A stretch of DNA of 64,000 nucleotides from an uncultured Candidatus Saccharibacteria bacterium (GTDB taxonomy: Bacteria; Patescibacteriota; Minisyncoccia; Portnoybacterales; UBA2143): assembly GCA_964594155.1 (NCBI GenBank), contig CAZQLH010000001.1, positions 1,448-65,447 on the forward strand, read 5' to 3'. Both the position numbers and the translations under genes were made by a program. A model generated the notes under the pieces. That model searched no databases. It saw only the letters and a list, made by a program, of their open reading frames with translations, and had not been told where the DNA came from. Each line of letters begins with the position of its first letter. The stretch's first letter is position 1. Positions 1-15,385 of this stretch are shown piece after piece.

Positions 1-1009
1 TACAACCGTTATTGCAAGATTTTTGCCATTCACAAGAGAAACATTCAGACGGTAAATTGTTTATTCTTTCTACATAACTTAATCTTTCAGCGCTGTTTAA
101 AACTTCAAGGAGTGGTTGTTTAGAAATATCACCTAGTAATAAATCAGGATAACCAGATGACCTATCGCAAGGATAGATTTTGCCATCGTACTCAAGACAA
201 AAATATCCAGCGCAAGATCCATTAAAAGCGCAACTTGAAGGTTTTTTATTAAACATAGCAGAAATGAAATTTTCAATCTCGCGGATTTTAAGCTTGGAGT
301 CATTTTGGGCAAGCCAAAGGTTGATTTGATCTATTAGGAATGTTGTAAGTTGTTTATTTGTAAGACTTTGGCCTGGCATCATCCGATTTTCATTGTTTTT
401 ATCAAGATAGATGTTTGTGCTCCACCCTCTAGCGCCAACAATATTTGTAAAGAAATTGAAATTTTCTTTAGTTTGAGATAAGTTGTCGCTTGTGAGGGTC
501 TGGATAATACCTGGTTTGATGTTGTGGTTACGAAGAATTTTTATTCCTCGCATTATTTGATTAAAACTTCCTTTTCCGTTGTAATTTTTTCGAAATCGAT
601 TATTGCTTTTTTCGTTGCCGTCTAAACTTACACCTACTTTGAAATTATATTCTTTAAAGAACTTAGCCCATTCTTCATTAATTAACGTGGCATTGGTCTG
701 GATGAAATTCTGGATTACTTGATTATTTCTAGTGATTTGTGATTGAATTTCAACTATTCTACGAAAGAAAGACAATCCTGCAAGTAACGGTTCTCCGCCA
801 TGCCAAATGAACATGAAGCGATCTGTAAAAAGTTGCATATACTCTACTAAAAACTTTCTAAGTAATTCATAATTCATGCGACAATTAGTAGATTGGTCTG
901 TTGTACTATAGAAACAATAACCGCAACGAAGATTACAGGAATTGCCGACTATTTTAATAATCGGAATCATTGTTTTAAACGGCGAAGCTAAGATGATAGG
1001 TTTTTTCAT
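1..1009 (-). CDS. radical SAM/SPASM-domain maturase (N-terminal ~336 aa in window; 3' end runs off window start)
   Basis: Minus-strand ORF with ATG at 1009..1007 and a GGAGGTG RBS 8 nt upstream. N-terminal CNLRCGYC (CX3CX2C) radical-SAM cluster motif; C-terminal region is Cys-rich and SPASM-like (CDRSSG..CLSCEWQKSC). Missing from the ORF track because it is edge-truncated. Confidence 0.8.
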   Translation of the reverse strand, partial: MKKPIILASPFKTMIPIIKIVGNSCNLRCGYCFYSTTDQSTNCRMNYELLRKFLVEYMQLFTDRFMFIWHGGEPLLAGLSFFRRIVEIQSQITRNNQVIQNFIQTNATLINEEWAKFFKEYNFKVGVSLDGNEKSNNRFRKNYNGKGSFNQIMRGIKILRNHNIKPGIIQTLTSDNLSQTKENFNFFTNIVGARGWSTNIYLDKNNENRMMPGQSLTNKQLTTFLIDQINLWLAQNDSKLKIREIENFISAMFNKKPSSCAFNGSCAGYFCLEYDGKIYPCDRSSGYPDLLLGDISKQPLLEVLNSAERLSYVERINNLPSECFSCEWQKSCNNGC

Positions 1010-1273: not shown

Positions 1274-3013
1274 ATGGAAATATTTAAAGATTCAAAAATT
1301 ATTTGGCGGTATTTGAGAAAGTATAAAAGAAAAGTTTATTTCATAGCTCTAATTGCTTTAATGGGCTCTTTTGTTAGCGCTGTTATTCCATATATTTATG
1401 GTCGTTTAGTTGATATTGCTGTTGAAGAATCTTCAAGTTTCCAATTAATTGGAGGAATTCTTTTAGGTTGGTTAATTTTGTCTTTATTAGGCAATTGGCT
1501 TGGCCGTATAGCTAGAAATAGAGGAAATCGTGTTTCTATTGACGTTGAAATGGATTTTCGTTTGAAAATAACTAATCATCTTTTGTTTTTGCCTTTAAGC
1601 TTTCATAAGAATGAGAAAATGGGAGAAATTATTCAAAGAGCTAATCGCGGGGCTGGTTTTTTAGATACAATTATTAGCCAAGTTGTTTTTCATCTTGGAC
1701 CAGATTTTTTAACAATTATTGGTTCTTTAATTATTATGGGCTTGGTTGAATGGAGATTAATGATATTTTTATTATTTATTTTATTTTTTTATTTTTTAGC
1801 TACTATTTGGAAAGTAAAACCAATTGTTAAAGCGCAAAAAGAATTAAATAAAATTTATGAAAAATCTTTTGGCGATCTTTATGATTCCATTCTTAATATT
1901 CAAACAGTTAAATCATTTACCAATGAAGAGTTAGAAAGAAAAAAAACAAATAAGAATTTTAGAGATAAAGCTGGTCAAAAGTTTAAGTCTTTTATGGATC
2001 TTTGGCGTATTCTTAATGCTTGGCAGCAAACAATTTTTAGCATAGGATTTGTATTTATTTTTGGCGGAGCTATTTTGTTTTTAAGAAAAGATATTATTAC
2101 TGCTGGCCAATTAGTTATGTTTGTTGGTTATATTAATTTAACATATCGTCCTTTTGCTTCTTTAGCTTATAATTATCGCCAAGTAAGAACTGGGCTAACT
2201 GCCATTCAAAGAGCAGAAAAGCTTCTTAAAGTTAAACCTGAACTTTATCAGAAAGATAAAAAAGAATTAAAGGATATTAAAAGCGAGGTGGAATTTATTA
2301 ATATTAGCTTTAATTACAAAAAAGGCAATCGGGTATTAAAGAATGTTAGCTTTAAAGCTAAATCTGGAGAAATGATTGCTTTGATTGGCGAAAGCGGGGT
2401 TGGTAAAACAACTTTTATTGATTTGATTTCCCGTTACTATATTCCCAAACAAGGGAAAATTTTAATAGATGGACAAGATATTGCTGAAATTAATTTAGAA
2501 TCATTAAGAGAAAATATTGCTGTTGTTCCTCAAGAAGTAACTTTATTTAATGACACAATTAAGAATAATATTAGATATGGGAGGCCTAAAGCTAGTGAAA
2601 AAGAAGTTATTGAAGCGTCTAAAGCGGCTCATGTTCATAATTTTGTTCAAAAGTTTGATAAGAAATATGAGCAATTAGTAGGTGAGCGAGGAATTAAGCT
2701 TTCTACTGGACAAAAACAAAGAGTGGCTATTGCCAGGGCTATCTTGAGAAATCCTAAGATTCTTATTCTTGACGAAGCTACTTCAAGCTTAGATTCGGCT
2801 ACGGAAAAATTAGTTCAAGATGCTTTGAGTTATTTAATTAAAGGAAGAACTACTTTTGTAATTGCTCATCGCTTAAGCACTATTCAAAAAGCTGATCAAA
2901 TTCTTGTTTTAGAAAAAGGCTGTATTGTTGAACAAGGAGATCATCAAGAATTAATTAATAAAGGCGGAGTTTATAAGAAGCTTTCTAAGTTACAATCAAC
3001 TATAATAAGATAA
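1274..3013 (+). CDS. ABC transporter, fused permease/ATP-binding (type I exporter)
   Basis: N-terminal 6-TM region. Walker A GESGVGKTT, ABC signature LSTGQKQRV, Walker B ILILDEATSSLD. Confidence 0.9.
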   Translation: MEIFKDSKIIWRYLRKYKRKVYFIALIALMGSFVSAVIPYIYGRLVDIAVEESSSFQLIGGILLGWLILSLLGNWLGRIARNRGNRVSIDVEMDFRLKITNHLLFLPLSFHKNEKMGEIIQRANRGAGFLDTIISQVVFHLGPDFLTIIGSLIIMGLVEWRLMIFLLFILFFYFLATIWKVKPIVKAQKELNKIYEKSFGDLYDSILNIQTVKSFTNEELERKKTNKNFRDKAGQKFKSFMDLWRILNAWQQTIFSIGFVFIFGGAILFLRKDIITAGQLVMFVGYINLTYRPFASLAYNYRQVRTGLTAIQRAEKLLKVKPELYQKDKKELKDIKSEVEFINISFNYKKGNRVLKNVSFKAKSGEMIALIGESGVGKTTFIDLISRYYIPKQGKILIDGQDIAEINLESLRENIAVVPQEVTLFNDTIKNNIRYGRPKASEKEVIEASKAAHVHNFVQKFDKKYEQLVGERGIKLSTGQKQRVAIARAILRNPKILILDEATSSLDSATEKLVQDALSYLIKGRTTFVIAHRLSTIQKADQILVLEKGCIVEQGDHQELINKGGVYKKLSKLQSTIIR

Positions 3014-3076: not shown

Positions 3077-3748
3077 TCAAATATATTGGAAGAAAGATTT
3101 AATTAGATTGATGATAGTTTTGTTATTGATAAGTATGCCAGATGATTTGTTTGGAAGAATAATGACTTTATCGTAAATAATAGCAATTCCCTGAAAGGAG
3201 ATAGGAAGTTTTTTTTCTGTGATTTGTATTTTACCCAGGCGTTTTTTAATTTTTTTGTAAATAATCTTTCTTTCTTTTCCGGGCCAGATTTTTTCATTAT
3301 TGATTAAAACATAGATTTTTCTGCTTTTGGTTGTTAATAAATCATCAAACAGAATTTTTATCCCCTTTTTATCTTTATAACTTTTAATTTCTCTTTGATC
3401 GTCTAAAGAATATTTGCTTCGCAAAGTGGCAATAATTCTAATAAATTCCCGTTCTTTTTCTTCTATTTCTTTTTTTTGCCTGCGCAGAATTCCTAAAAGG
3501 TTGTCTGGCGATTCAGCAATAAAGTATCTTTTTCGCTTGTCTTTTGATTCAGAAATAAGGCCTTTTTCTTTTAAGGATTTGATAATCTTATAAGTGGTTG
3601 GCCTGCTTATTTTAGCTTGTTGGGCAATTTTTTGAACAGAAGTATAGCCCAGCTCTAAAGCGGTTAAATAGACTTTGGCTTCTTTTTCACTTAATCCTAA
3701 TTTTCTTAATTCTAACGGCAAAGTTTCCATATGATTATCATATAGCAA
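3077..3748 (-). CDS. TrmB-family HTH transcriptional regulator
   Basis: N-terminal TrmB-type wHTH (LGLSEKEAKVYLTALELGYTSVQKIAQQAKISRPTTYKIIKSL). Confidence 0.7.
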   Translation of the reverse strand: MLYDNHMETLPLELRKLGLSEKEAKVYLTALELGYTSVQKIAQQAKISRPTTYKIIKSLKEKGLISESKDKRKRYFIAESPDNLLGILRRQKKEIEEKEREFIRIIATLRSKYSLDDQREIKSYKDKKGIKILFDDLLTTKSRKIYVLINNEKIWPGKERKIIYKKIKKRLGKIQITEKKLPISFQGIAIIYDKVIILPNKSSGILINNKTIINLIKSFFQYI

Positions 3749-3868
3749 AAAAAAGACATTGACAAGGTTTATTTATATAAGGTATTATAATAAAAGTAAA
3801 TTTGAAGGAAATTTACTATAATTTTTTGTTTTTTAAAAACTAGACAATGAAAGGAGGTGAGAAGAATT

Positions 3869-4030
3869 ATGGTTATCAAAGATGAGGCGCTTCGAGTTTT
3901 GGCCCGTTATGCTTATTGGAGAAAACATTTAGGGTTGCCTCAGAAAAGTGAACAGGTTTTAAATTCTCTTAGTCTTAGTTGTGACGGAGAATGTAAGGCT
4001 TGTTTAGGGCCGTGCTCAGGTGATGATTAA
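3869..4030 (+). CDS. candidate RiPP precursor peptide (53 aa, Cys-rich C-terminus; sacti/ranthipeptide-like)
   Basis: ATG 3869 preceded by AAAGGAGGTG RBS. Translates to MVIKDEALRVLARYAYWRKHLGLPQKSEQVLNSLSLSCDGECKACLGPCSGDD. Ends 60 nt upstream of the radical SAM/SPASM gene at 4091. Not in the ORF track (<60 aa). Confidence 0.55.
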   Translation: MVIKDEALRVLARYAYWRKHLGLPQKSEQVLNSLSLSCDGECKACLGPCSGDD

Positions 4031-4090
4031 AATTAAACTTTGGGAACGTTTCAATAGAGAGGCGTTCCTATTCTTTTAGGAGAGATTGAA

Positions 4091-5185
4091 ATGAAAGATA
4101 GAGATAATAATAACCCTTTTTTTTCTTTGCAATGGCATATAACTTCTAAATGTGATCAACAATGTAAACACTGTTATATGTTTCAGTCTACTGAACTTGC
4201 CAAAAATGAAAAAGATTTGAGTTTTGAAGAGATTATTGAAGTGGTAAAAGATTTTTTAGATACCTGTGAAAAATTGAATGCTAACGCATTCATTGCTTTT
4301 ACTGGAGGTGATCCTCTTTTGAGAGAAGATTTTTTTTCGATTTTGGATTTTATACGCAAAGAAATACATAAACGTGGCATGAAATTTCCTATTATTGATA
4401 TTATGGGAAATCCATTTCATTTAGATTTAGAAACTGCTAAAAACCTAAAGGAAAAAGGAGTAAGACGGTATCAAATAAGTATAGATGGAGTGAGAGAAAA
4501 ACATGATGTACTTAGAAAGAAAGGCAGTTTTCAGGATTCTTTAGAAGCTATTGAAGTACTAAAAAAGACAGGAATAACAACAATTGTGATGTTCACGCTA
4601 AGTAAGTTTAATGCAGTAGATTTTTTTTCTTTAGTTGAACTTTTAGTGAGAGACTGCGAAATAGATATTTTTGCTTTTGCTCGTTTAGTCAGGCCAGAAT
4701 TGATGCCAATTAAAGATTATAGAAAAGTTAGCTTTTCTCCTTTTGAATATAGAGATTTTCTTATAAAAGTAGATTCTTTATACAACACCCTGCACAATGC
4801 CGGTTACAAGACTAAATTTTCCTTAAAAGATCATTTATGGAAGCTGTTTTTATATGAACGAGGTGAATTTACCTTTAATAGTGTAAATGATGGGATTGTT
4901 TATGGTGGATGTGGAATAGGAGTGGCTAATCTTTCTGTTTTATGTGATGGGAAAGTATACGCCTGCAGACGATTTCCAAGCTTGATAGGGAATGTGCCAA
5001 AAGATAAACTAATAGATATATTTTTACAGTCGGAGAAGCTAAATTGTTATCGTGAATTGTCTAATTTCATTAAATGTAAAAAATGTGAATTATTGCAATA
5101 TTGCCGTGGGTGTGGTGCGGTAGCGTATGGTGTTTTTGGTTCATTTTTTGCACCTGATCCTCAATGTTGGAAGAAACTTGATTAA
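4091..5185 (+). CDS. radical SAM/SPASM-domain peptide-modifying enzyme
   Basis: CDQQCKHC (CX3CX2C) motif near the N-terminus. C-terminal SPASM-like CKKCELLQYCRGC and GGCGIG..CDGKVYAC. Confidence 0.85.
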   Translation: MKDRDNNNPFFSLQWHITSKCDQQCKHCYMFQSTELAKNEKDLSFEEIIEVVKDFLDTCEKLNANAFIAFTGGDPLLREDFFSILDFIRKEIHKRGMKFPIIDIMGNPFHLDLETAKNLKEKGVRRYQISIDGVREKHDVLRKKGSFQDSLEAIEVLKKTGITTIVMFTLSKFNAVDFFSLVELLVRDCEIDIFAFARLVRPELMPIKDYRKVSFSPFEYRDFLIKVDSLYNTLHNAGYKTKFSLKDHLWKLFLYERGEFTFNSVNDGIVYGGCGIGVANLSVLCDGKVYACRRFPSLIGNVPKDKLIDIFLQSEKLNCYRELSNFIKCKKCELLQYCRGCGAVAYGVFGSFFAPDPQCWKKLD

Positions 5186-5207
5186 GTCTGTGTTTGTGTT
5201 TTATAAT

Positions 5208-5241
5208 AGAGAGTAGAGATATTTCTACTCTCTTTATTTTT
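5208..5241 (+). terminator. intrinsic terminator-like hairpin after rSAM gene
   Basis: agagagtagag-atatttc-tactctct followed by a T-run. Confidence 0.45.
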
Positions 5242-5847
5242 ATGTTTAAGTTTGCTAAAAAAATAAATAATAAGGTCAAACAATTGGCCTCAAGAATTCC
5301 TAAAAATGGAAAGGTTTTAGATTTAGGTTCAGGTATGGGTGCTAATAGTATTTTTTTATCAGATCAAGGTTTTAAAGTTACTTGCGTGGATAAAGATAAA
5401 GAGGTGATTAATGAAATAAAAAAAAAGTGTCAAGAAATTAATGTTGTATCAGGAAATATTTTAGATTTTGGTTTTCCTGAAAATGAGTATGATTTAATTT
5501 TAATATTGAATGTTTTGCATTTTTTTAGATTTACAGAGGTAAAAATAATAATAGACAAAACAATTAAATCTTTAAGAAAAGGAGGATTAGTTTATCTTGA
5601 GGTTTTCTCTACTAAAGATCCTTCGTATGTTAATTTTATAAAAGTTGCTCAGAAAATTAAAGGAGAAGGTTCGTTTTATAGTAAAAAAATGAAAAGTTTT
5701 GTACATTATTTTACAAAAGAGGAAATTATAAAGCTTTTTTCTGGGAACAAAATTTTAGAAATAGAAGAAAAGATAACAAGAGATAATCATCCGCCCATTG
5801 GCATACACAAACATAGTATTTTTTTTGTAGTGGTCGAAAAAGTTTGA
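5242..5847 (+). CDS. class I SAM-dependent methyltransferase
   Basis: Motif I VLDLGSGMGANSIFL with acidic motif II. Start chosen at ATG 5242; the ORF track's 5194 start lies inside the terminator. Confidence 0.65.
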   Translation: MFKFAKKINNKVKQLASRIPKNGKVLDLGSGMGANSIFLSDQGFKVTCVDKDKEVINEIKKKCQEINVVSGNILDFGFPENEYDLILILNVLHFFRFTEVKIIIDKTIKSLRKGGLVYLEVFSTKDPSYVNFIKVAQKIKGEGSFYSKKMKSFVHYFTKEEIIKLFSGNKILEIEEKITRDNHPPIGIHKHSIFFVVVEKV

Positions 5848-6160: not shown

Positions 6161-6288
6161 AAAGTTATTGAAAGCTAACAAATCAAATCAAAAAGATTAA
6201 GATTTAATCTCCTTGATTCGGTTTGTTAAATAGAGAACCGAGTGGTTCTTTGAAAATATAATACTTGGAGAAAAAAGGGGGTGATGAT

Positions 6289-7320
6289 ATGTTACTGCAT
6301 CCTGGAACTGGGATGGAAAGCCTGAATGATTATAAAGTTCGGGTTGGCAATGGCGGAGTTATAATTACAACTCTTGGAGCAAAGGAATTTAACGGAGAAT
6401 ATAATAAAAGGAATTGGTTGTATGTGCTATTTATGCGACTGGTCAGTATCTGGGCAGCATTGACAAACTTCACTCAAGCTCTTTTTATTAAGGTGTTCAA
6501 AAAAAGGAAAAGTTCTCTTGGGAAAATTCTCTGGGAGATGGGAAGAGACCCAGAACACATTTCTAGTTTTTTTGGCGATCGATTTAGCAGGATTAACCAC
6601 CAGGCTGTAGTTGGAGCTGCAAGTTGGAAATCTCTTGATATTGTTTACAATTATCATGAGAAGATTAAGCCACAGCTTAATGGCGGTGTTGAAGGTTGGT
6701 TAACAAATCATTGGATCGGAAAACTTGAAAACCGTCAGGCTATTGCTAATCGATTGAAAATTATTATTAATCTTTTAACAAAGGCCTTTGCAGAATTTGC
6801 TAATGAGCCGGAAATTAGAATAATTTCACTGGCTTCTGGTTCAGCCCAGGCAGTTATAGAGGCAATGTTAAAGCGTCCTCATTTTAATATTAAAGCAGTT
6901 TTAATTGATATTGACAGAACTGCTTTAGCAGCTGCAAAAGCTTACGCTGAAAAAAATGGGTTAGGAGATAGATTTACCTTTATCAAGGGCACAACTAGAG
7001 TTTTGGAAAAAGTTTGTCAGGAATTTCAACCTCATATTATTGAGATGGTTGGATTTCTTGATTACAGGCCTGATGATAAGGCAATTAAATTAATCAATAA
7101 GATTAAAGACTGCCTGTCTGATAAAGGAATTTTTCTAACCTGCAACATTAACTACAATCGGGAGAAAATCTTTCTTGATTGGGTTATGTTATGGCCCATG
7201 ATTTATAGAAGCGAGGAACAGTTTACAAAATTGCTTCTCAATGGAGGTTTTTTTCCTCAAAATGTTGACATATTTTATGAACCGTTTCAGATTCATGGAA
7301 TTGGAGTATGTCAAAAATAA
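6289..7320 (+). CDS. SAM-dependent methyltransferase-like protein
   Basis: Rossmann-like IISLASGSAQAVIEA..LIDIDRTALAAAKAYAEKNGLGDRFTFIKG. ATG 6289 has a GGGGGTGATGAT RBS, which is preferred over the TTG at 6265. Confidence 0.5.
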   Translation: MLLHPGTGMESLNDYKVRVGNGGVIITTLGAKEFNGEYNKRNWLYVLFMRLVSIWAALTNFTQALFIKVFKKRKSSLGKILWEMGRDPEHISSFFGDRFSRINHQAVVGAASWKSLDIVYNYHEKIKPQLNGGVEGWLTNHWIGKLENRQAIANRLKIIINLLTKAFAEFANEPEIRIISLASGSAQAVIEAMLKRPHFNIKAVLIDIDRTALAAAKAYAEKNGLGDRFTFIKGTTRVLEKVCQEFQPHIIEMVGFLDYRPDDKAIKLINKIKDCLSDKGIFLTCNINYNREKIFLDWVMLWPMIYRSEEQFTKLLLNGGFFPQNVDIFYEPFQIHGIGVCQK

Positions 7321-11321: not shown

Positions 11322-12245
11322 ATGGCTTTGATTATTGAAAAGAAACAAATAAAAGAGTGGTTAATAGAATTAAAGAAAGATTTTAAAGTTGTTAATGTTA
11401 AGAATTCTATTCTGCCGCCCAAGAAATATTTTTTTCCTCCTCAGGAAGATATTTTTGTTTTTGATAAAAAAACAAAAAATCTTGATACTGTAGATTACAA
11501 GAAACAGTTAGTGATTTTTGGCTTAAGCTTGAATAAATTAGAAGGCATTAAGCAATTAGATGAAATAATGAGCAAGCCCCAGCCAGATTTTTTTTACTGG
11601 CAAAGAAGAGAACAGTCAGTTTTAATTGGCTTAACTGATAATTCAGTTGAAGTAACTCCAGCTGGCGACCTTATTTTAGAAAAAATTAATCAAAAGCAAT
11701 ATCAAGCATTGGTTTTAACTGATAAGGGGAAGAAATTAGCTCAAAACAAGTTTTTTAAAGAAAATAAAAATCCAGAGATTAAAAAATATCCTCAAGAAGA
11801 AAATCCAGCTAAAAAAATGCTTTTAGATTCAGAATTATTAGCTGAAGCAGTAGAATGGTCTTGGCAAGTAAATCATAAGATTTGGGATGAGTTGGCTGAA
11901 AAATGCTTAGGTTGCGGTATTTGCACATATGTTTGTCCTCTTTGCCATTGTTTTTCCATAAAAGACAGGGTTAGCTTAGATGATAAGAAGTGCGTTCGCT
12001 GCCGGCAATGGGATGCTTGCACTTTGCCAAGCTTTGCTAAAATTGCTGGCGGGCATAATTTTCATAAAACCATTAAAGAGCGATATTATAATTGGTTTTA
12101 TCATAAATTTGTGCGTGCATATAAGGAATATGGCAAGCCGCAATGCATAGCTTGCGGCAATTGCAAAGAATATTGCCCAGCTAAGATTAAAATAGGAGAA
12201 GTTTTAAAAGAAATAGTTAAGGATTATAAAAAGAAAAAAGAATAA
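11322..12245 (+). CDS. hydB: [NiFe]-hydrogenase group 3b-like beta subunit (4Fe-4S ferredoxin-domain protein)
   Basis: Two ferredoxin-type Cys clusters (CLGCGICTYVCP, CIACGNCKEYCP). First gene of a four-gene hydrogenase operon. Confidence 0.65.
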   Translation: MALIIEKKQIKEWLIELKKDFKVVNVKNSILPPKKYFFPPQEDIFVFDKKTKNLDTVDYKKQLVIFGLSLNKLEGIKQLDEIMSKPQPDFFYWQRREQSVLIGLTDNSVEVTPAGDLILEKINQKQYQALVLTDKGKKLAQNKFFKENKNPEIKKYPQEENPAKKMLLDSELLAEAVEWSWQVNHKIWDELAEKCLGCGICTYVCPLCHCFSIKDRVSLDDKKCVRCRQWDACTLPSFAKIAGGHNFHKTIKERYYNWFYHKFVRAYKEYGKPQCIACGNCKEYCPAKIKIGEVLKEIVKDYKKKKE

Positions 12246-12260
12246 ATTTATTAAACTTAT

Positions 12261-12323
12261 ATTCTAAAATTTATGAGCGCTTTACCCTAAAGGGCTTTGA
12301 CGCGTCTCAGAAATTTCAGAACA
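12261..12323. repeat. structured intergenic repeat, copy 1 (A/T inverted arms flanking GC-rich hairpin core)
   Basis: ATTCTAAAATTT..GCGCTTTACCCTAAAGGGCTTTGACGCG..AAATTTCAGAAC. Near-identical copy 3 below. Confidence 0.7.
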
Positions 12324-12357
12324 CTCGTTTTTATTAATATAAATTTTATTATTAGTT

Positions 12358-13185
12358 ATGAAAAATTTATACAAACCATTTAAAGTTAAAATTGATAAAA
12401 TAGAAAAGCATTCTTCTAATGTTAATCTTTTTAGATTAAAAAAAGAAAAAGGCGATTTTTTAAAAAACGACCAGGGATTATTATTTAATCCAGGCCAGTT
12501 TGTTTTGCCTGGCATTTTTGGCTATGGAGAAGCTCCTTTTGGCCCTGCTTCATCGCCTTATCAAGATTCATATATTGACATCTTAGTTAGAAGAGTTGGA
12601 GTTTTAACTGAGGCCTTGCATAAATTAAAGAAAGGGGATGAAATATTTATGCGCGGTCCTTATGGAAATGGCTTTCCTTTGGATTTTATAAAAGGCCATG
12701 ATATTGTTATGGTGACTGGCGGCTGTGGAATTCCTCCGATCGCTTCTTTAATTGAATATGTTATTAAAAACAAAGATGACTTTGGCCGGGTTTATTTAAT
12801 CTATGGAGCTCGGACTCCGGGTGATTTGTTAATTAAAGACAGAATAAAAATATGGGAAAAAGAAATAAAAGTATTATTAACTGTTGATCAGCCAAGTAAG
12901 GATTGGAAGGGTTCAGTAGGCATGGTTTCAGAATTAATTAATGATATTAAGATTGATCCTAAAAATGCTGTTTCAGCTATGTGCGGGCCAGGGCCAATGA
13001 TGGATGCTTTGGAAAAAATCTTAAGACCCTTGGGGGTTTCTGACAGAAGGATTTTTGTTAATATGGAAAGAAAAATGCAGTGCGGGATAGGCAAGTGCCA
13101 GCATTGCACAACTGGAGATAAATATGTATGCCAAGACGGTCCAGTATTTAATTTTGATGAAATTGATAAAAACTGGGATAAATAG
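12358..13185 (+). CDS. hydG: hydrogenase gamma subunit, FAD/NAD(P)-binding oxidoreductase with C-terminal 2Fe-2S
   Basis: Ferredoxin-NADP reductase-like fold (GGCGIPP); C-terminal CGIGKCQHC..C cluster. Confidence 0.7.
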   Translation: MKNLYKPFKVKIDKIEKHSSNVNLFRLKKEKGDFLKNDQGLLFNPGQFVLPGIFGYGEAPFGPASSPYQDSYIDILVRRVGVLTEALHKLKKGDEIFMRGPYGNGFPLDFIKGHDIVMVTGGCGIPPIASLIEYVIKNKDDFGRVYLIYGARTPGDLLIKDRIKIWEKEIKVLLTVDQPSKDWKGSVGMVSELINDIKIDPKNAVSAMCGPGPMMDALEKILRPLGVSDRRIFVNMERKMQCGIGKCQHCTTGDKYVCQDGPVFNFDEIDKNWDK

Positions 13186-13228
13186 GAAATATTCCGGAAA
13201 TCAAATTTTTAAAATCATTTGTTTTTTT

Positions 13229-13296
13229 TCGCGCATTGAAATTTCTTCGCGCTTTACCTTAAAGGGCTCCGACGCGTCTCAGAAATTTCAAAGCAC
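13229..13296. repeat. structured intergenic repeat, copy 2
   Basis: CATTGAAATTTC..GCGCTTTACCTTAAAGGGCTCCGACGCG..GAAATTTCAAAG; arms form an inverted repeat. Confidence 0.7.
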
Positions 13297-13314
13297 TCAA
13301 TAAAAATAAGTACT

Positions 13315-14064
13315 ATGATTAAACCAAAAGTTGCTATCTATGACTTTACTGATTGTGAAGGATGTGAAGTAGAGATTATTTCTCTTAGAGAAAAGCTTTT
13401 AATATTGGAAAGCAGATTAGATATTGTTGATTGGCGATTAGGCCAGGATAGAAAAGAATCTGGCCCTTTTGATATCACTATTATTGAAGGAACTCCAATA
13501 ACTCAGCATGAAATTGATTTACTTAAGAAATTAAGAAAAGAATCAGAAGTTTTAATTGCTTTGGGCGCTTGCGCTGCTTTGGGCGGTATTCCAGCGATTG
13601 TGGATAAAAAAGAGCGGGCTAAATGGTATAAGAAGATTTATCCTTCGACAAGCTCAGGACAAGCGTATAAGCCAAGGGGAATTGACGCTTTGCCTTTATC
13701 TGCTTATGTTCAAGTTGATTTTTTAATTCATGGCTGTCCAGTCAATGGCAAAGAAGTAGTTAGAATTATTGAAGACTTGTTAGCTGGCAAAGTTCCAAAG
13801 TATCAAGGCTATTCAGTTTGTTTTGAATGCAAACAGGAAAATAATCCTTGTCGGCTATCGGATAGCCGACCTTGCTTGGGTCCGATTACTCAAGGCGGGT
13901 GCCAAGCTATTTGTGTTTCTGGCGGTTCTGCTTGTTATGGCTGTTTTGGCTTGCGCGAAGAACCAGAAATTAAAAATTTATTAAAGATTCTTAATAAGAT
14001 TACAGATAAAAAAGAAATTGAAAGATATTTTACAATGTTTTTGAGTAGAGTAAACAAGAAATAA
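13315..14064 (+). CDS. hydD: [NiFe]-hydrogenase small (delta) subunit
   Basis: NuoB/hydrogenase small-subunit-like Cys pattern (DCEGCE, GACA, HGCP; C-terminal CxxC..C). Confidence 0.75.
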   Translation: MIKPKVAIYDFTDCEGCEVEIISLREKLLILESRLDIVDWRLGQDRKESGPFDITIIEGTPITQHEIDLLKKLRKESEVLIALGACAALGGIPAIVDKKERAKWYKKIYPSTSSGQAYKPRGIDALPLSAYVQVDFLIHGCPVNGKEVVRIIEDLLAGKVPKYQGYSVCFECKQENNPCRLSDSRPCLGPITQGGCQAICVSGGSACYGCFGLREEPEIKNLLKILNKITDKKEIERYFTMFLSRVNKK

Positions 14065-14082
14065 AACAAATAAAAATTTCAT

Positions 14083-14146
14083 ATTCTAAATTTTCTTCGC
14101 GCTTTACCCTAAAGGGCTTTGACGCGTCTCAGAAATTTCAGAATAT
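14083..14146. repeat. structured intergenic repeat, copy 3
   Basis: ATTCTAAATTTT..GCGCTTTACCCTAAAGGGCTTTGACGCG..AAATTTCAGAATA. The core is identical to copy 1. Confidence 0.7.
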
Positions 14147-14161
14147 TCATTTTTTTATACA

Positions 14162-15385
14162 ATGAACAATTTTATTACTAAAATAGAAGGGCATGGGAGT
14201 TTAACTATTGATTGGAAGAAAAATTCCATTGAATTGAATATTCATGAAGGCGAGCGGCTTTTTGAGGGGATGCTGGTTAATCGGACAGCTGAAGAAATGC
14301 ATTGGATTACGCCTCGTATTTGCGGGGTTTGTCCCACAGCACATAATTTAGCTTCTTTAACTGCTTTAGAAGATTCTTTGGATATTAAACCTAATCAAAC
14401 AACTGTTTTATTGCGTGATTTAATGCAGAGCGGGCAAATGATTCAAAGCCATGCTTTGCATCTTTTCTTTTTATCTTTGCCTGATTATTTAGGAATTGAC
14501 CGGGGAACAGAATTAGCTCAAAAGAACCCAGAAGCGTTTAAGAATGCTTTAGCTCTTAAAGAAGTTTCTGATTTGATTGTTCAGGTTGTTGGGGGCCGGA
14601 TTGTTCATCCAACCAAAACAACTATTGGCGGTTTTCATAAAATCCCAAGTATTTTAGCTTTAAAGAAATTGCTTAAGAAATTAGAAAAATCAGAATTGGC
14701 TGCTAAGAATACAATTGAATTGGCAGCTAATATTGAATTTCCAGAATTAAGTGTTGATTTGCAATTAGTTGCTTTGGATAATGATTCAGTAATAGCTGTT
14801 TCTTCAAAGAATATTAAAGGAAGAAAAGAATCATTAATTAAGAATTACAAGCAGGATATTGAAGAAGAAATCAGGGATTATTCAACAGCTAAGTTTGGCA
14901 AGTATAAGGGGGAAGAAATGATGGTGGGTTCTTTGGCTCGTTTAGCTGTTTATGGAAATTATGATAAGAAATATCAAGTAGATTTTGCCAATCCTTTTCA
15001 TAATAATTTGGCCCAGGCAATTGAAATAGGGATTTACCATCAGAAAGCGCAGGAAATTATTAAAAAATTATTAAATATAGAAATAGATAAAAAAGTAATT
15101 CAACCAAGCAAAAACCATTCTTTAAGAGGTGTTGGCGCTATTGAAGCTCCAAGAGGCGGGCTTTATCATGAAGTTCATTTAGCCCCTTCGACAAGCTCAG
15201 GGTTTAATAATCTTATTACTGAAGCTAATATTATTACTCCTACAGTTCAGAATTTAACTTCTATTGAAAAAAGCAGTCAAGCTTTGCTAGAACAAACAAA
15301 AAACCGTTCTAAAGAAGAAATAGAACGATTATTGGTGATGTTAGTTCGGGCTTATGATCCTTGTATTACTTGCTCGGTTCACTAG
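14162..15385 (+). CDS. hydA: [NiFe]-hydrogenase large (alpha) subunit
   Basis: N-terminal RICGVCP (RxCGxC) and C-terminal DPCITCSVH (DPCxxCxxH) Ni-Fe ligand motifs. The protein ends at the His, with no C-terminal extension. Confidence 0.9.
   Translation: MNNFITKIEGHGSLTIDWKKNSIELNIHEGERLFEGMLVNRTAEEMHWITPRICGVCPTAHNLASLTALEDSLDIKPNQTTVLLRDLMQSGQMIQSHALHLFFLSLPDYLGIDRGTELAQKNPEAFKNALALKEVSDLIVQVVGGRIVHPTKTTIGGFHKIPSILALKKLLKKLEKSELAAKNTIELAANIEFPELSVDLQLVALDNDSVIAVSSKNIKGRKESLIKNYKQDIEEEIRDYSTAKFGKYKGEEMMVGSLARLAVYGNYDKKYQVDFANPFHNNLAQAIEIGIYHQKAQEIIKKLLNIEIDKKVIQPSKNHSLRGVGAIEAPRGGLYHEVHLAPSTSSGFNNLITEANIITPTVQNLTSIEKSSQALLEQTKNRSKEEIERLLVMLVRAYDPCITCSVH

Follow-up and report, generated by a model that had tools for sequence, protein, structure and literature searches.

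A conserved Cys-rich small gene as candidate precursor of a radical SAM/SPASM-methyltransferase cassette related to the ACGX system

The described systems closest to the locus considered here pair a small peptide with an enzyme of the radical S-adenosylmethionine (rSAM)/SPASM type. Nearest by enzyme family is the ACGX system (TIGR04340 for the enzyme and TIGR04341 for the peptide), which has been defined bioinformatically, and on which no experimental paper or published chemistry was found in the literature searched. The nearest enzyme family with an experimental characterization belongs to the SbtM/SbtA thio(seleno)oxazole system (TIGR04082), where the rSAM/SPASM enzyme SbtM acts on a small peptide and turns its Cys or Sec into a thio(seleno)oxazole (PMC11002830). 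Further points of comparison are: 1) the ranthipeptide systems, PapB and SCIFF (six Cys in forty-five)/CteB, the first of which joins the sulfur of Cys to the β-carbon of Asp or the γ-carbon of Glu in C-Xn-D/E motifs, with n = 0-6 tolerated (PMC9413430). 2) The sactisynthases, which, like CteB and SuiB, have at their N-terminus a recognition element (RRE domain) for peptides that are made on the ribosome and modified after translation (RiPPs). 3) Compact RRE-less enzymes, namely anSME, which attacks the β-carbon of Cys, and the triceptide cyclophane synthase ChlB, which binds its leader without an RRE, as in the enzyme-leader complexes PDB 9GM3 and 9GMC (the primary ChlB paper being Ruel et al. 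2025, as cited in PMC12912966). Here we compare with these systems a 53-codon open reading frame (ORF) at positions 3869-4030 of a 64,000-nucleotide stretch of DNA (the window) from an uncultured Candidatus Saccharibacteria bacterium. An earlier note on this DNA had proposed the ORF as the candidate precursor for the adjacent rSAM/SPASM enzyme. A conserved leader, a Cys-rich core and adjacency to the enzyme gene give this proposal strong comparative support, and we put at about 0.8 the probability that the ORF encodes the precursor of a three-gene RiPP cassette, together with the rSAM/SPASM enzyme (4091-5185) and a TehB-like methyltransferase (5242-5847). The features concerned are the following:

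3869..4030, plus strand: candidate precursor peptide gene, 53 aa plus stop (ATG at 3869, TAA at 4028-4030), translation MVIKDEALRVLARYAYWRKHLGLPQKSEQVLNSLSLSCDGECKACLGPCSGDD
3850..3859, plus strand: Shine-Dalgarno sequence (SD) of the peptide gene, AAAGGAGGTG, with 11 nt from GGAGG to the ATG
Residues 1-34 approximately, plus strand: putative leader part of the peptide, with a predicted helix at residues 2-20 and invariant L11, Y14, Y16 and W17 (nt 3899-3919)
Residues 35-53 approximately, plus strand: putative core part of the peptide, LSLSCDGECKACLGPCSGDD, with four Cys
4091..5185, plus strand: candidate radical SAM/SPASM maturase, 364 aa, CX3CX2C at residues 21-28, seven SPASM Cys
5242..5847, plus strand: TehB-like class I S-adenosylmethionine-dependent methyltransferase, 201 aa, third conserved member of the cassette

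The coordinates, the translation, the strong SD and the Cys pattern reported earlier for this ORF all agree with the sequence and the ORF list, as does the gap to the enzyme gene, the spacer 4031-4090 being exactly 60 nt long and the rSAM gene starting at 4091. The four Cys codons lie at 3980 (C38), 3992 (C42), 4001 (C45) and 4013 (C49), giving the pattern C-x3-C-x2-C-x3-C, and the C-terminus of the peptide is SGDD. An alternative in-frame GTG at 3857 would lead to a 57-aa product; because this codon overlaps the SD itself, the ATG at 3869 is the likelier start. The ORF had also been called unannotated. This holds for the NCBI source, a 152,823-bp contig in which the neighboring proteins are present and the 53-aa peptide is absent, but not more widely, as the exact peptide has been gene-called by JGI, ENA and Logan on 18 or more contigs. 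The peptide matches no model of Pfam or NCBIfam, that of SCIFF included, even at E≤10, and a paralogue search found no second copy of it in the window.

At only 53 aa, and in a window whose GC content of 33% favors spurious ORFs, such a frame could in principle have opened by chance in AT-rich intergenic DNA. A single-sequence word-index search with the peptide returned the peptide alone. Relatives surfaced through an alignment drawn from neighboring-gene context, and the alignment-based search recovered 40 called homologues in a collection of 5.8 billion proteins. When every one of the 1,672 stop-to-stop segments in the six frames of the window was scored with a profile made from 38 homologues, the window sequence left out, the ORF came first with 37.8 bits (E=1.2e-10) and the runner-up had 10.7 bits. 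Among loci whose enzyme is 56-63% identical to that of the window, a small ORF lies directly 5' of the enzyme gene wherever the locus has upstream sequence (with tails such as ...RLGKYNYWRGHLGLPTKKKGFPRHFSSVTCSCNMEPCKTCIGY in L001, ...VLKKYNYWRSSLGMPEEKKKVPKHFSSMDCSCNMEPCQTCIGY in L004 and ...VLAKYNYWRGSMGLKKGTVRTMQSADCSCNMEACSTCIGPSLKPR in L002), and loci with a 47-49% identical enzyme carry peptides of the form ...RYNYWRKSLGL...CQVACHSDPCQADPTCDFD or ...RYAYWNFLFG...NCQAACAPGDPCSAPQ. The loci with the peptide ORF are L001, L002/L003, L004/L005, L090, L091, L092, L103, L108, L109 and L116. The small ORF that the earlier note would have sought beside orthologous rSAM genes is thus found in all intact loci with upstream sequence, across enzymes only 47-63% identical. 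Furthermore, synonymous codons vary at the invariant residues (five codons for Leu, both TGC and TGT for Cys), and in any two homologues about half of the identical residues differ in codon; therefore, selection acts on the protein. The strong SD is likewise conserved, each of the 12 homologous loci compared having GGAGG or GGAGGTG 7-13 nt 5' of the start codon. Because of the conservation in the alignment, the profile score and the codon variation, a chance frame is effectively refuted, and on this comparative evidence ORF 3869-4030 is a real, conserved gene.

Conservation is distributed unevenly along the peptide. In a MAFFT alignment of 39 sequences the invariant positions are L11, Y14, Y16, W17, C42, P48 and C49, where P48-C49 is a Pro-Cys pair that MAFFT puts in an invariant column, and C38 is nearly invariant. 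Once the leaders are aligned, the motif L-x-x-Y-x-Y-W is invariant across the homologues. The Cys spacing, which had been expected to recur in the homologues, is not kept: apart from C42 (invariant), C38 (nearly so) and the Pro-Cys pair, the core is variable. The description of the N-terminal half as helical, aromatic and leader-like fits the prediction of AlphaFold2, which, given the family alignment, models residues 2-20 confidently as a helix (pLDDT 84-91) and the tail as disordered (pLDDT 43-52). The generic features of RiPP precursors are accordingly present, with a conserved leader preceding a variable core and a gene that is adjacent to, and co-conserved with, that of the enzyme.

The peptide family is clearly rare. 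An exhaustive profile search over 1.84 billion cluster representatives gave 18 matches at E≤0.001, a lower bound because small ORFs are under-called; three of the 18 are long repetitive proteins, and at 50% clustering the window peptide is the representative of a cluster of its own. The family has no name in Pfam or NCBIfam and was absent from the searchable literature, and its named homologues are all "hypothetical protein", for example KKR85574.1 of Candidatus Azambacteria (64 contigs) and one from an Asgardarchaeia metagenome-assembled genome. Judging from the names of the homologues, which point to Patescibacteria (Azambacteria, and Staskawiczbacteria for the enzyme) and Asgard archaea, with an intermediate class in Micrarchaeota, the family appears to occur mainly in ultra-small uncultured microbes. 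Separately, the family profile matched three long proteins, P0161 (1481 aa), P0164 (920 aa) and P0166 (351 aa), in 5-17 separate stretches each; presumably they are Cys-rich proteins with repeats similar to the core.

The enzyme encoded directly downstream carries a CX3CX2C motif and a C-terminal seven-Cys SPASM motif, and hence is an rSAM/SPASM enzyme, matching the Radical_SAM and SPASM models of Pfam with 78.8 and 27.6 bits. Its radical SAM Cys are C21, C25 and C28, and across 20 homologues exactly seven more Cys are invariant, namely C274, C292, C329, C332, C338, C341 and C359. As the CX3CX2C motif begins at residue 21, there is no room for an N-terminal RRE. The AlphaFold model (pLDDT 88) likewise has no extra N-terminal domain; among known folds it comes closest to anSME and ChlB, with a TM of 0.75 along the full length, and then to SuiB, CteB, SkfB and PqqE. 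By sequence, no solved structure exceeds 81 bits. The best NCBIfam family is TIGR04340 (radical SAM/SPASM domain protein, ACGX system) with 373.1 bits against a cutoff of 400; next come SbtM (TIGR04082, 203.6 bits), the heme b synthase AhbD (122 bits) and PapB (NF047865, 70.2 bits). The SCIFF maturase TIGR03974 (cutoff 425 bits) is not among the 25 best NCBIfam matches of the enzyme, the lowest of which has 55 bits. At E≤1e-20 the enzyme has 3,451 relatives, many of them from gut bacteria.

A second gene likewise accompanies the enzyme. The TehB-like methyltransferase, whose top matches are TehB and a selenoprotein methyltransferase, adjoins the rSAM gene in 12 of 12 non-redundant loci (those with at least 47% rSAM identity and usable flank), and in 0 of 56 loci classed as canonical ACGX by script. 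Its longest ORF opens at TTG 5194, gene callers use ATG 5242, and the homologues are 200-202 aa long, so that the true start is probably ATG 5242 rather than TTG 5194. As judged from these loci, the conserved cassette is the peptide, the RRE-less rSAM/SPASM enzyme and the TehB-like methyltransferase, together about 2 kb in length.

Certain loci and assemblies depart from this arrangement. 1) At window position 4114, L110 and L112, which are other assemblies of the same organism, lack one C of the run AACCC that precedes T8; as a result the first ~29 rSAM codons are out of frame, and the called product is 335 aa without the CX3CX2C motif. This could be either a homopolymer sequencing or assembly error, or a real inactivating or phase-variable polymorphism. 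2) In an orthologous locus with 61% identity (L087, 715-1659, minus strand; also L088 and L089), an integrase/transposase-like gene replaces the peptide gene and the 5' end of the rSAM gene. As the enzyme match begins at residue 29, the cassette is disrupted there. 3) P0163 (105 aa) joins, in one frame, a YNYWR leader and the first half of a core (…NCQLACHS) to the final ~55 residues of the rSAM/SPASM enzyme; the chimera implies that nearly the entire enzyme gene was deleted in this contig, or else that the contig was mis-assembled. 4) In L098 a family peptide gene (1781-1939) lies 3' of the rSAM gene and of a minus-strand methyltransferase, and not 5' of the rSAM gene. As this contig begins inside the enzyme gene, the arrangement could be an alternative order or a second copy.

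The relationship to the ACGX system could be followed through the enzyme, the leader and the core. The enzyme is 40-46% identical to canonical ACGX members, and the organization is alike, a small Cys-rich peptide gene lying immediately 5' of an RRE-less rSAM/SPASM gene on the same strand (here with the 60-nt gap). In GTDB, 80 genome loci have enzymes 39-46% identical, most of them with a canonical ACGX-repeat peptide immediately 5', for example MALSNVAEFAGNVSACGASDKPSACGAASPEEKPSACGSACGAGDK. There are nonetheless consistent differences: 1) The enzyme scores of TIGR04340 follow the class of the peptide, with 564-606 bits in canonical loci, 470-478 in intermediates and 317-373 in the clade whose peptides have the YxYW leader, and the window enzyme, at 373.1 bits, is below the cutoff of 400. 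2) TIGR04341 (cutoff 28 bits) gave no match at E≤10 to the window peptide, P0142 or P0123, whereas the controls scored 57.7 and 36.0 bits; in general the model is not matched by the family of the window peptide or by several intermediate classes, and scores canonical ACGX peptides at 36-58 bits. 3) The core of the window peptide holds a single "ACLG" and no ACGX repeats. 4) The TehB-like methyltransferase is always beside the enzymes of the YxYW clade and never in canonical ACGX loci. 5) The ACGX-repeat loci belong to gut Firmicutes, Bacteroidota, Synergistota and Methanomethylophilaceae; set against these gut Firmicutes and Bacteroidota, the hosts here are metagenome lineages of the Candidate Phyla Radiation (CPR), DPANN and Asgard type.

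The leaders of the two sides form a graded series, from YxYW in the present family through [YF]W...RSAQSFL in the intermediates to KRSAQSYL in the ACGX peptides of Bacteroidota. Bridging intermediate peptides are of the form KTNFW...RRSAQSFLNPQ...CESGCNNSCGTACASGC and HNFWRK...HTVQSVLG...SCGAGSCNCGGGC, and the window peptide has SEQVLNSL at the place of the RSAQSYL element of Bacteroidota. In hhalign, the YxYW family and the RSAQ-leader group aligned at the N-terminal leader motif with E=1.5e-4 and a probability of 52% over 18 columns, which is suggestive of a homologous leader shared by the YxYW family and the ACGX side. As both curated ACGX models, for enzyme and for peptide, failed, we do not file the locus as ACGX. 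We conclude that it is a sister lineage of ACGX, in which the enzyme is homologous, the leader probably so, the core different and the methyltransferase lineage-specific. In three loci of the intermediate class (L008, L010 and L051, with FW...H[ST][AV]Q leaders and CGxG-type Cys cores) two methyltransferase genes lie beside the rSAM gene. One product is 30-32% identical to the TehB-like enzyme of the window; the other, of ~250 aa and encoded on the opposite strand, resembles UbiE, CpaM and the daptide methyltransferases. Because these intermediate loci carry two methyltransferase genes, methylation may be ancestral to the non-canonical branches.

The comparison with experimentally characterized systems is less close throughout. 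The earlier note had likened the peptide to SCIFF-like or sactipeptide precursors, and no family test bears this out: the peptide matches no SCIFF model, the SCIFF maturase model is outside the 25 best for the enzyme, and the enzyme lacks an RRE. Of the sactipeptide features the SPASM domain is present and the RRE absent; StsB scores low (61 bits against a cutoff of 625), and SkfB (PDB) aligns over the rSAM core only. The seven SPASM Cys of the window enzyme align one-to-one with those of CteB, yet CteB (PDB) scores only 38-58 bits and the alignments begin at its residue 93. PapB resembles the present system in having a Cys-rich precursor, whose C-X3-D/E motif is comparable with the recurrent C-x-x-[D/E] of the cores here, but its model NF047865 (cutoff 340) is missed widely with 70.2 bits, and both it and SCIFF/CteB differ from the present cassette in that the latter has an additional obligatory methyltransferase. 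SbtM likewise acts on Cys (or Sec) of a small peptide. The window enzyme attains 203.6 bits against a cutoff of 350, aligns only to positions 195-503 of the 516-position model and lacks the ~195-residue N-terminal extension; moreover, the window locus has no selenocysteine signal, and the substrate peptides of the two systems are unrelated. Finally, anSME and ChlB are compact and RRE-less like the window enzyme, to which they are only 17-22% identical. In work on 4K36-39 an eighth Cys of anSME is said to complete auxiliary cluster I, and the window enzyme has no equivalent of it. Two possibilities were rejected on these comparisons. ChlB-like cyclophane chemistry requires aromatic core residues, of which the window core has none, and RRE-mediated leader recognition is ruled out by the lack of an RRE domain in the enzyme and of a PqqD-like gene in the conserved cassette.

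The surroundings of the cassette contain additional signals and genes, which can be listed as follows:

3759..3788, plus strand: promoter-like site, TTGACA-18 nt-TATTAT, 11/12 consensus matches, 80 nt 5' of the start codon of the peptide
4041..4078, plus strand: terminator/attenuator-like hairpin, stem of 12 bp and loop of 6 nt (4041-4070), then TTCTTTT
6265..7320, plus strand: second methyltransferase, Methyltransf_20/31-like, 351 aa, cassette membership uncertain
3077..3730, minus strand: TrmB-family helix-turn-helix regulator, divergent from the promoter region of the peptide, local context
1274..3013, plus strand: MsbA-like ABC exporter, 579 aa, without peptidase domain, a possible exporter 0.86 kb upstream

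The site at 3759-3788 is suggestive of a promoter of the peptide gene and faces a divergent promoter-like site of the TrmB-family regulator gene. Between the peptide and the enzyme, the hairpin at 4041-4070 has a minimum free energy of -18.4 kcal/mol (z=-3.1) and sits, with its T-run, just 5' of the SD of the rSAM gene (AGGAGAG). A GC-rich hairpin with a T-run is found at this place in 10 of 10 homologous loci, the hairpin sequences themselves being unrelated. A hairpin between precursor and enzyme is a well-known attenuator layout of RiPP operons, and by this analogy we read the element at 4041-4078 as a putative attenuator. Another hairpin, of 11 bp and with a T-run (5208-5233), follows right after the rSAM stop, 5' of the methyltransferase, and there is a further promoter-like site at 5178-5207. 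Rfam found one tRNA in the window and nothing at the peptide locus.

Neither the ABC exporter nor the TrmB regulator adjoins the cassette in any other locus, and both were rejected as members. Extra rSAM genes, near the cassettes of L116 and L109 and at 1-1009 of the window, were likewise rejected as components, having only a generic similarity of 22-32% and not being mutually orthologous. The cassette is limited to three genes because the exporter, the regulator and the extra rSAM genes are not conserved beside it. A homologue (55% identical) of the second methyltransferase at 6265-7320 lies directly 5' of the peptide gene in L091 (1572-2588) and in no other fetched locus, so that it may be an optional accessory tailoring enzyme.

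These observations bear on the possibility that the small protein is not a substrate at all, but a small protein rich in Cys with a metal-binding, regulatory or accessory-subunit role, the rSAM enzyme acting on some other substrate. Its four Cys could make a metal site, and anSME, the nearest fold of the enzyme, acts on large proteins. Against it, the gene order, the attenuator hairpin and the combination of a conserved leader with a hypervariable, disordered, Cys-rich tail are the signature of a RiPP precursor, most of the 80 genome loci have, in parallel, an ACGX peptide 5' of the homologous enzyme, and no alternative substrate gene is conserved. We therefore consider a non-substrate role very improbable.

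As a RiPP precursor, the peptide might be matured along the following lines. The peptide gene would be transcribed from its own promoter and translated from the strong SD, and a leaky terminator hairpin would reduce transcription of the enzyme genes such that substrate exceeds enzyme, the architecture being observed and its function conjectural. The amphipathic N-terminal helix with L-x-x-Y-x-Y-W would serve as the leader and might dock directly on the RRE-less enzyme, for which ChlB is a precedent, and the enzyme would modify the disordered Cys-rich core. We infer that Cys is the target since it is the sole residue type common to all cores. The auxiliary cluster I of CteB reportedly binds a Cys of its substrate (structures PDB 5WGG and 5WHY), and the seven conserved, CteB-like SPASM Cys would similarly leave one iron of an auxiliary cluster open to a Cys of the substrate. 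Our leading guess for the product is short thioether rings of the ranthionine type, from Cys to the β- or γ-carbon of Asp/Glu in C-x-x-[D/E], which the window peptide has in C38-DG-E41 and C49-SG-D52. In the cores of the family, D/E is found at +3 or +4 from 95 of the 166 Cys, as compared to 46 ± 5 in composition-preserving shuffles. The methyltransferase would then methylate the product on a carboxylate or on sulfur. Provided that the peptide is a RiPP precursor, this Cys-Asp/Glu thioether chemistry remains tentative and a little short of an even chance.

Several points weigh against the precursor reading or against its thioether part. 1) In this AT-rich region promoter-like matches are no more frequent than in shuffles. 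2) The excess of C-x-x-[D/E] comes mainly from a conserved internal repeat, C-x-x-D-P, and, since the sequences are related, does not consist of independent events. 3) In the window peptide, neither C42 nor C45 is followed by an acidic residue at +3 or +4. 4) The nearest characterized enzyme by sequence is SbtM, a thiooxazole former (204 bits), PapB having only 70. 5) Seven-Cys SPASM domains are known also in enzymes that do not make thioethers. 6) Among the compared loci the cassette is not accompanied by a conserved protease, exporter or immunity gene, which is unusual for a secreted bacteriocin. Some chemistry that is neither thioether nor thiooxazole formation is, again for a RiPP precursor, quite possible, if well under even odds.

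The fourth of these points leads to a different chemistry for the same cassette with the same precursor role. In an SbtM-like reaction each Cys, with the preceding carbonyl, would become a 5-thiooxazole (-4 Da each); the TehB-like methyltransferase would S-methylate the exocyclic sulfur, and the resulting peptide might bind metal or carry masked thiols. SbtM is the second-best family for the enzyme and the best characterized one, the entire clade scoring 183-229 bits against its model, and its chemistry acts on Cys or Sec (PMC11002830). The many short ACGx units with linkers in the canonical ACGX relatives suggest a local modification of each Cys. Namesake relatives of TehB methylate chalcogens, one of the two top matches of the methyltransferase is a selenoprotein methyltransferase, and 5-thiooxazoles alkylate readily (bioRxiv 10.1101/2025.11.18.689057). 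On the other hand, the enzyme score is far under the 350-bit cutoff of SbtM and the ~195-residue N-terminal region is absent, rSAM/SPASM enzymes this divergent often differ in chemistry, S-methylation by TehB-like class I methyltransferases is a guess, and the conserved acidic residues at +3 would be left unexplained. Taken together, the thiooxazole route seems unlikely, if still a serious competitor to the thioether rings.

As to the role of the product, the lack of a conserved protease, exporter or immunity gene makes it possible that the modified peptide is not a secreted antimicrobial but stays intracellular, as a precursor of a redox cofactor, like mycofactocin or PQQ, or as a metal-binding peptide. 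No leader peptidase was seen to travel with the cassette, the hosts are small-genome anaerobes (Patescibacteria by the names of the homologues) with a NiFe-hydrogenase-type gene in the window, and the Cys, His and Asp in which the cores are rich could serve as metal ligands. The cores of the closest sub-family end in C-I-G-Y, reminiscent of MftA, whose C-terminal motif is G-V-Y. The window peptide, however, ends in SGDD and not in GY, no dehydrogenase partner is conserved, and an ABC exporter lies 0.86 kb upstream in the window. Moreover, the cores vary strongly between lineages, which argues for an antagonistic or signaling peptide, such variation being more typical of these than of cofactors. 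On balance, an intracellular role is improbable.

The remainder of the window is ordinary chromosomal DNA with 33% GC, encoding DnaG, GroEL, RNase J and a NiFe-hydrogenase-type cluster. The latter (11322-15385) comprises a Fer4_22 protein, an NAD-binding/DHODB Fe-S protein and a protein like the large subunit of NiFe-hydrogenases; it is probably a cytoplasmic bidirectional hydrogenase, and points to a host that lives anaerobically by fermentation. A second candidate RiPP cassette lies at the window edge (1-1009, minus strand), running ~130 nt past the window start; it corresponds to 4418-6990 of L119. It occupies a strain-variable island of ~2.6 kb between a tRNA-guanine transglycosylase gene and an ABC transporter; the island is found in L119 and the window and absent in L118. 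Its first gene encodes a 379-aa rSAM/SPASM protein that scores 287 bits with the anSME model (cutoff 349), 220 with DynA, 169 with DarW and 164 with DarE. Directly 3' of it, outside the window, is a candidate 52-aa ORF, MEKGINALQGAFERAKERPDINLSAQESSDWDQWNNWDDLGGDDPGWGDISD, with a Trp/Asp-rich tail reminiscent of darobactin-type W-x-W cores, and a third gene encodes a 295-aa protein with a HEVIH motif and a weak SprT-like match.

For the organisms concerned, the potential implication is that the triad installs a modification new to radical-SAM RiPPs, such as S-methylated 5-thiooxazoles or methylated ranthionine rings, with RRE-free recognition of the leader. It would then constitute a new RiPP class that passes horizontally between ultra-small lineages of symbiotic or anaerobic habit (Patescibacteria, DPANN, Asgard archaea), and whose product could be a metal-binding or host-interaction molecule. 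We regard this larger picture as conceivable, if doubtful. Natural-product genes have been little explored in CPR/Patescibacteria and related ultra-small organisms, nothing specific on RiPPs of these groups (CPR or Patescibacteria) having been found in the literature searched, and short precursor genes are routinely missed; ORF 3869-4030, which is absent from the NCBI record of its organism, is an example. With its ~2 kb, clear leader motif, small RRE-less enzyme and dedicated methyltransferase, the cassette should be an easy target for heterologous expression, and it offers a test of how SPASM enzymes without an RRE recognize their leaders. It also gives the closest access to the large ACGX family, and chemistry solved here would probably illuminate both families.

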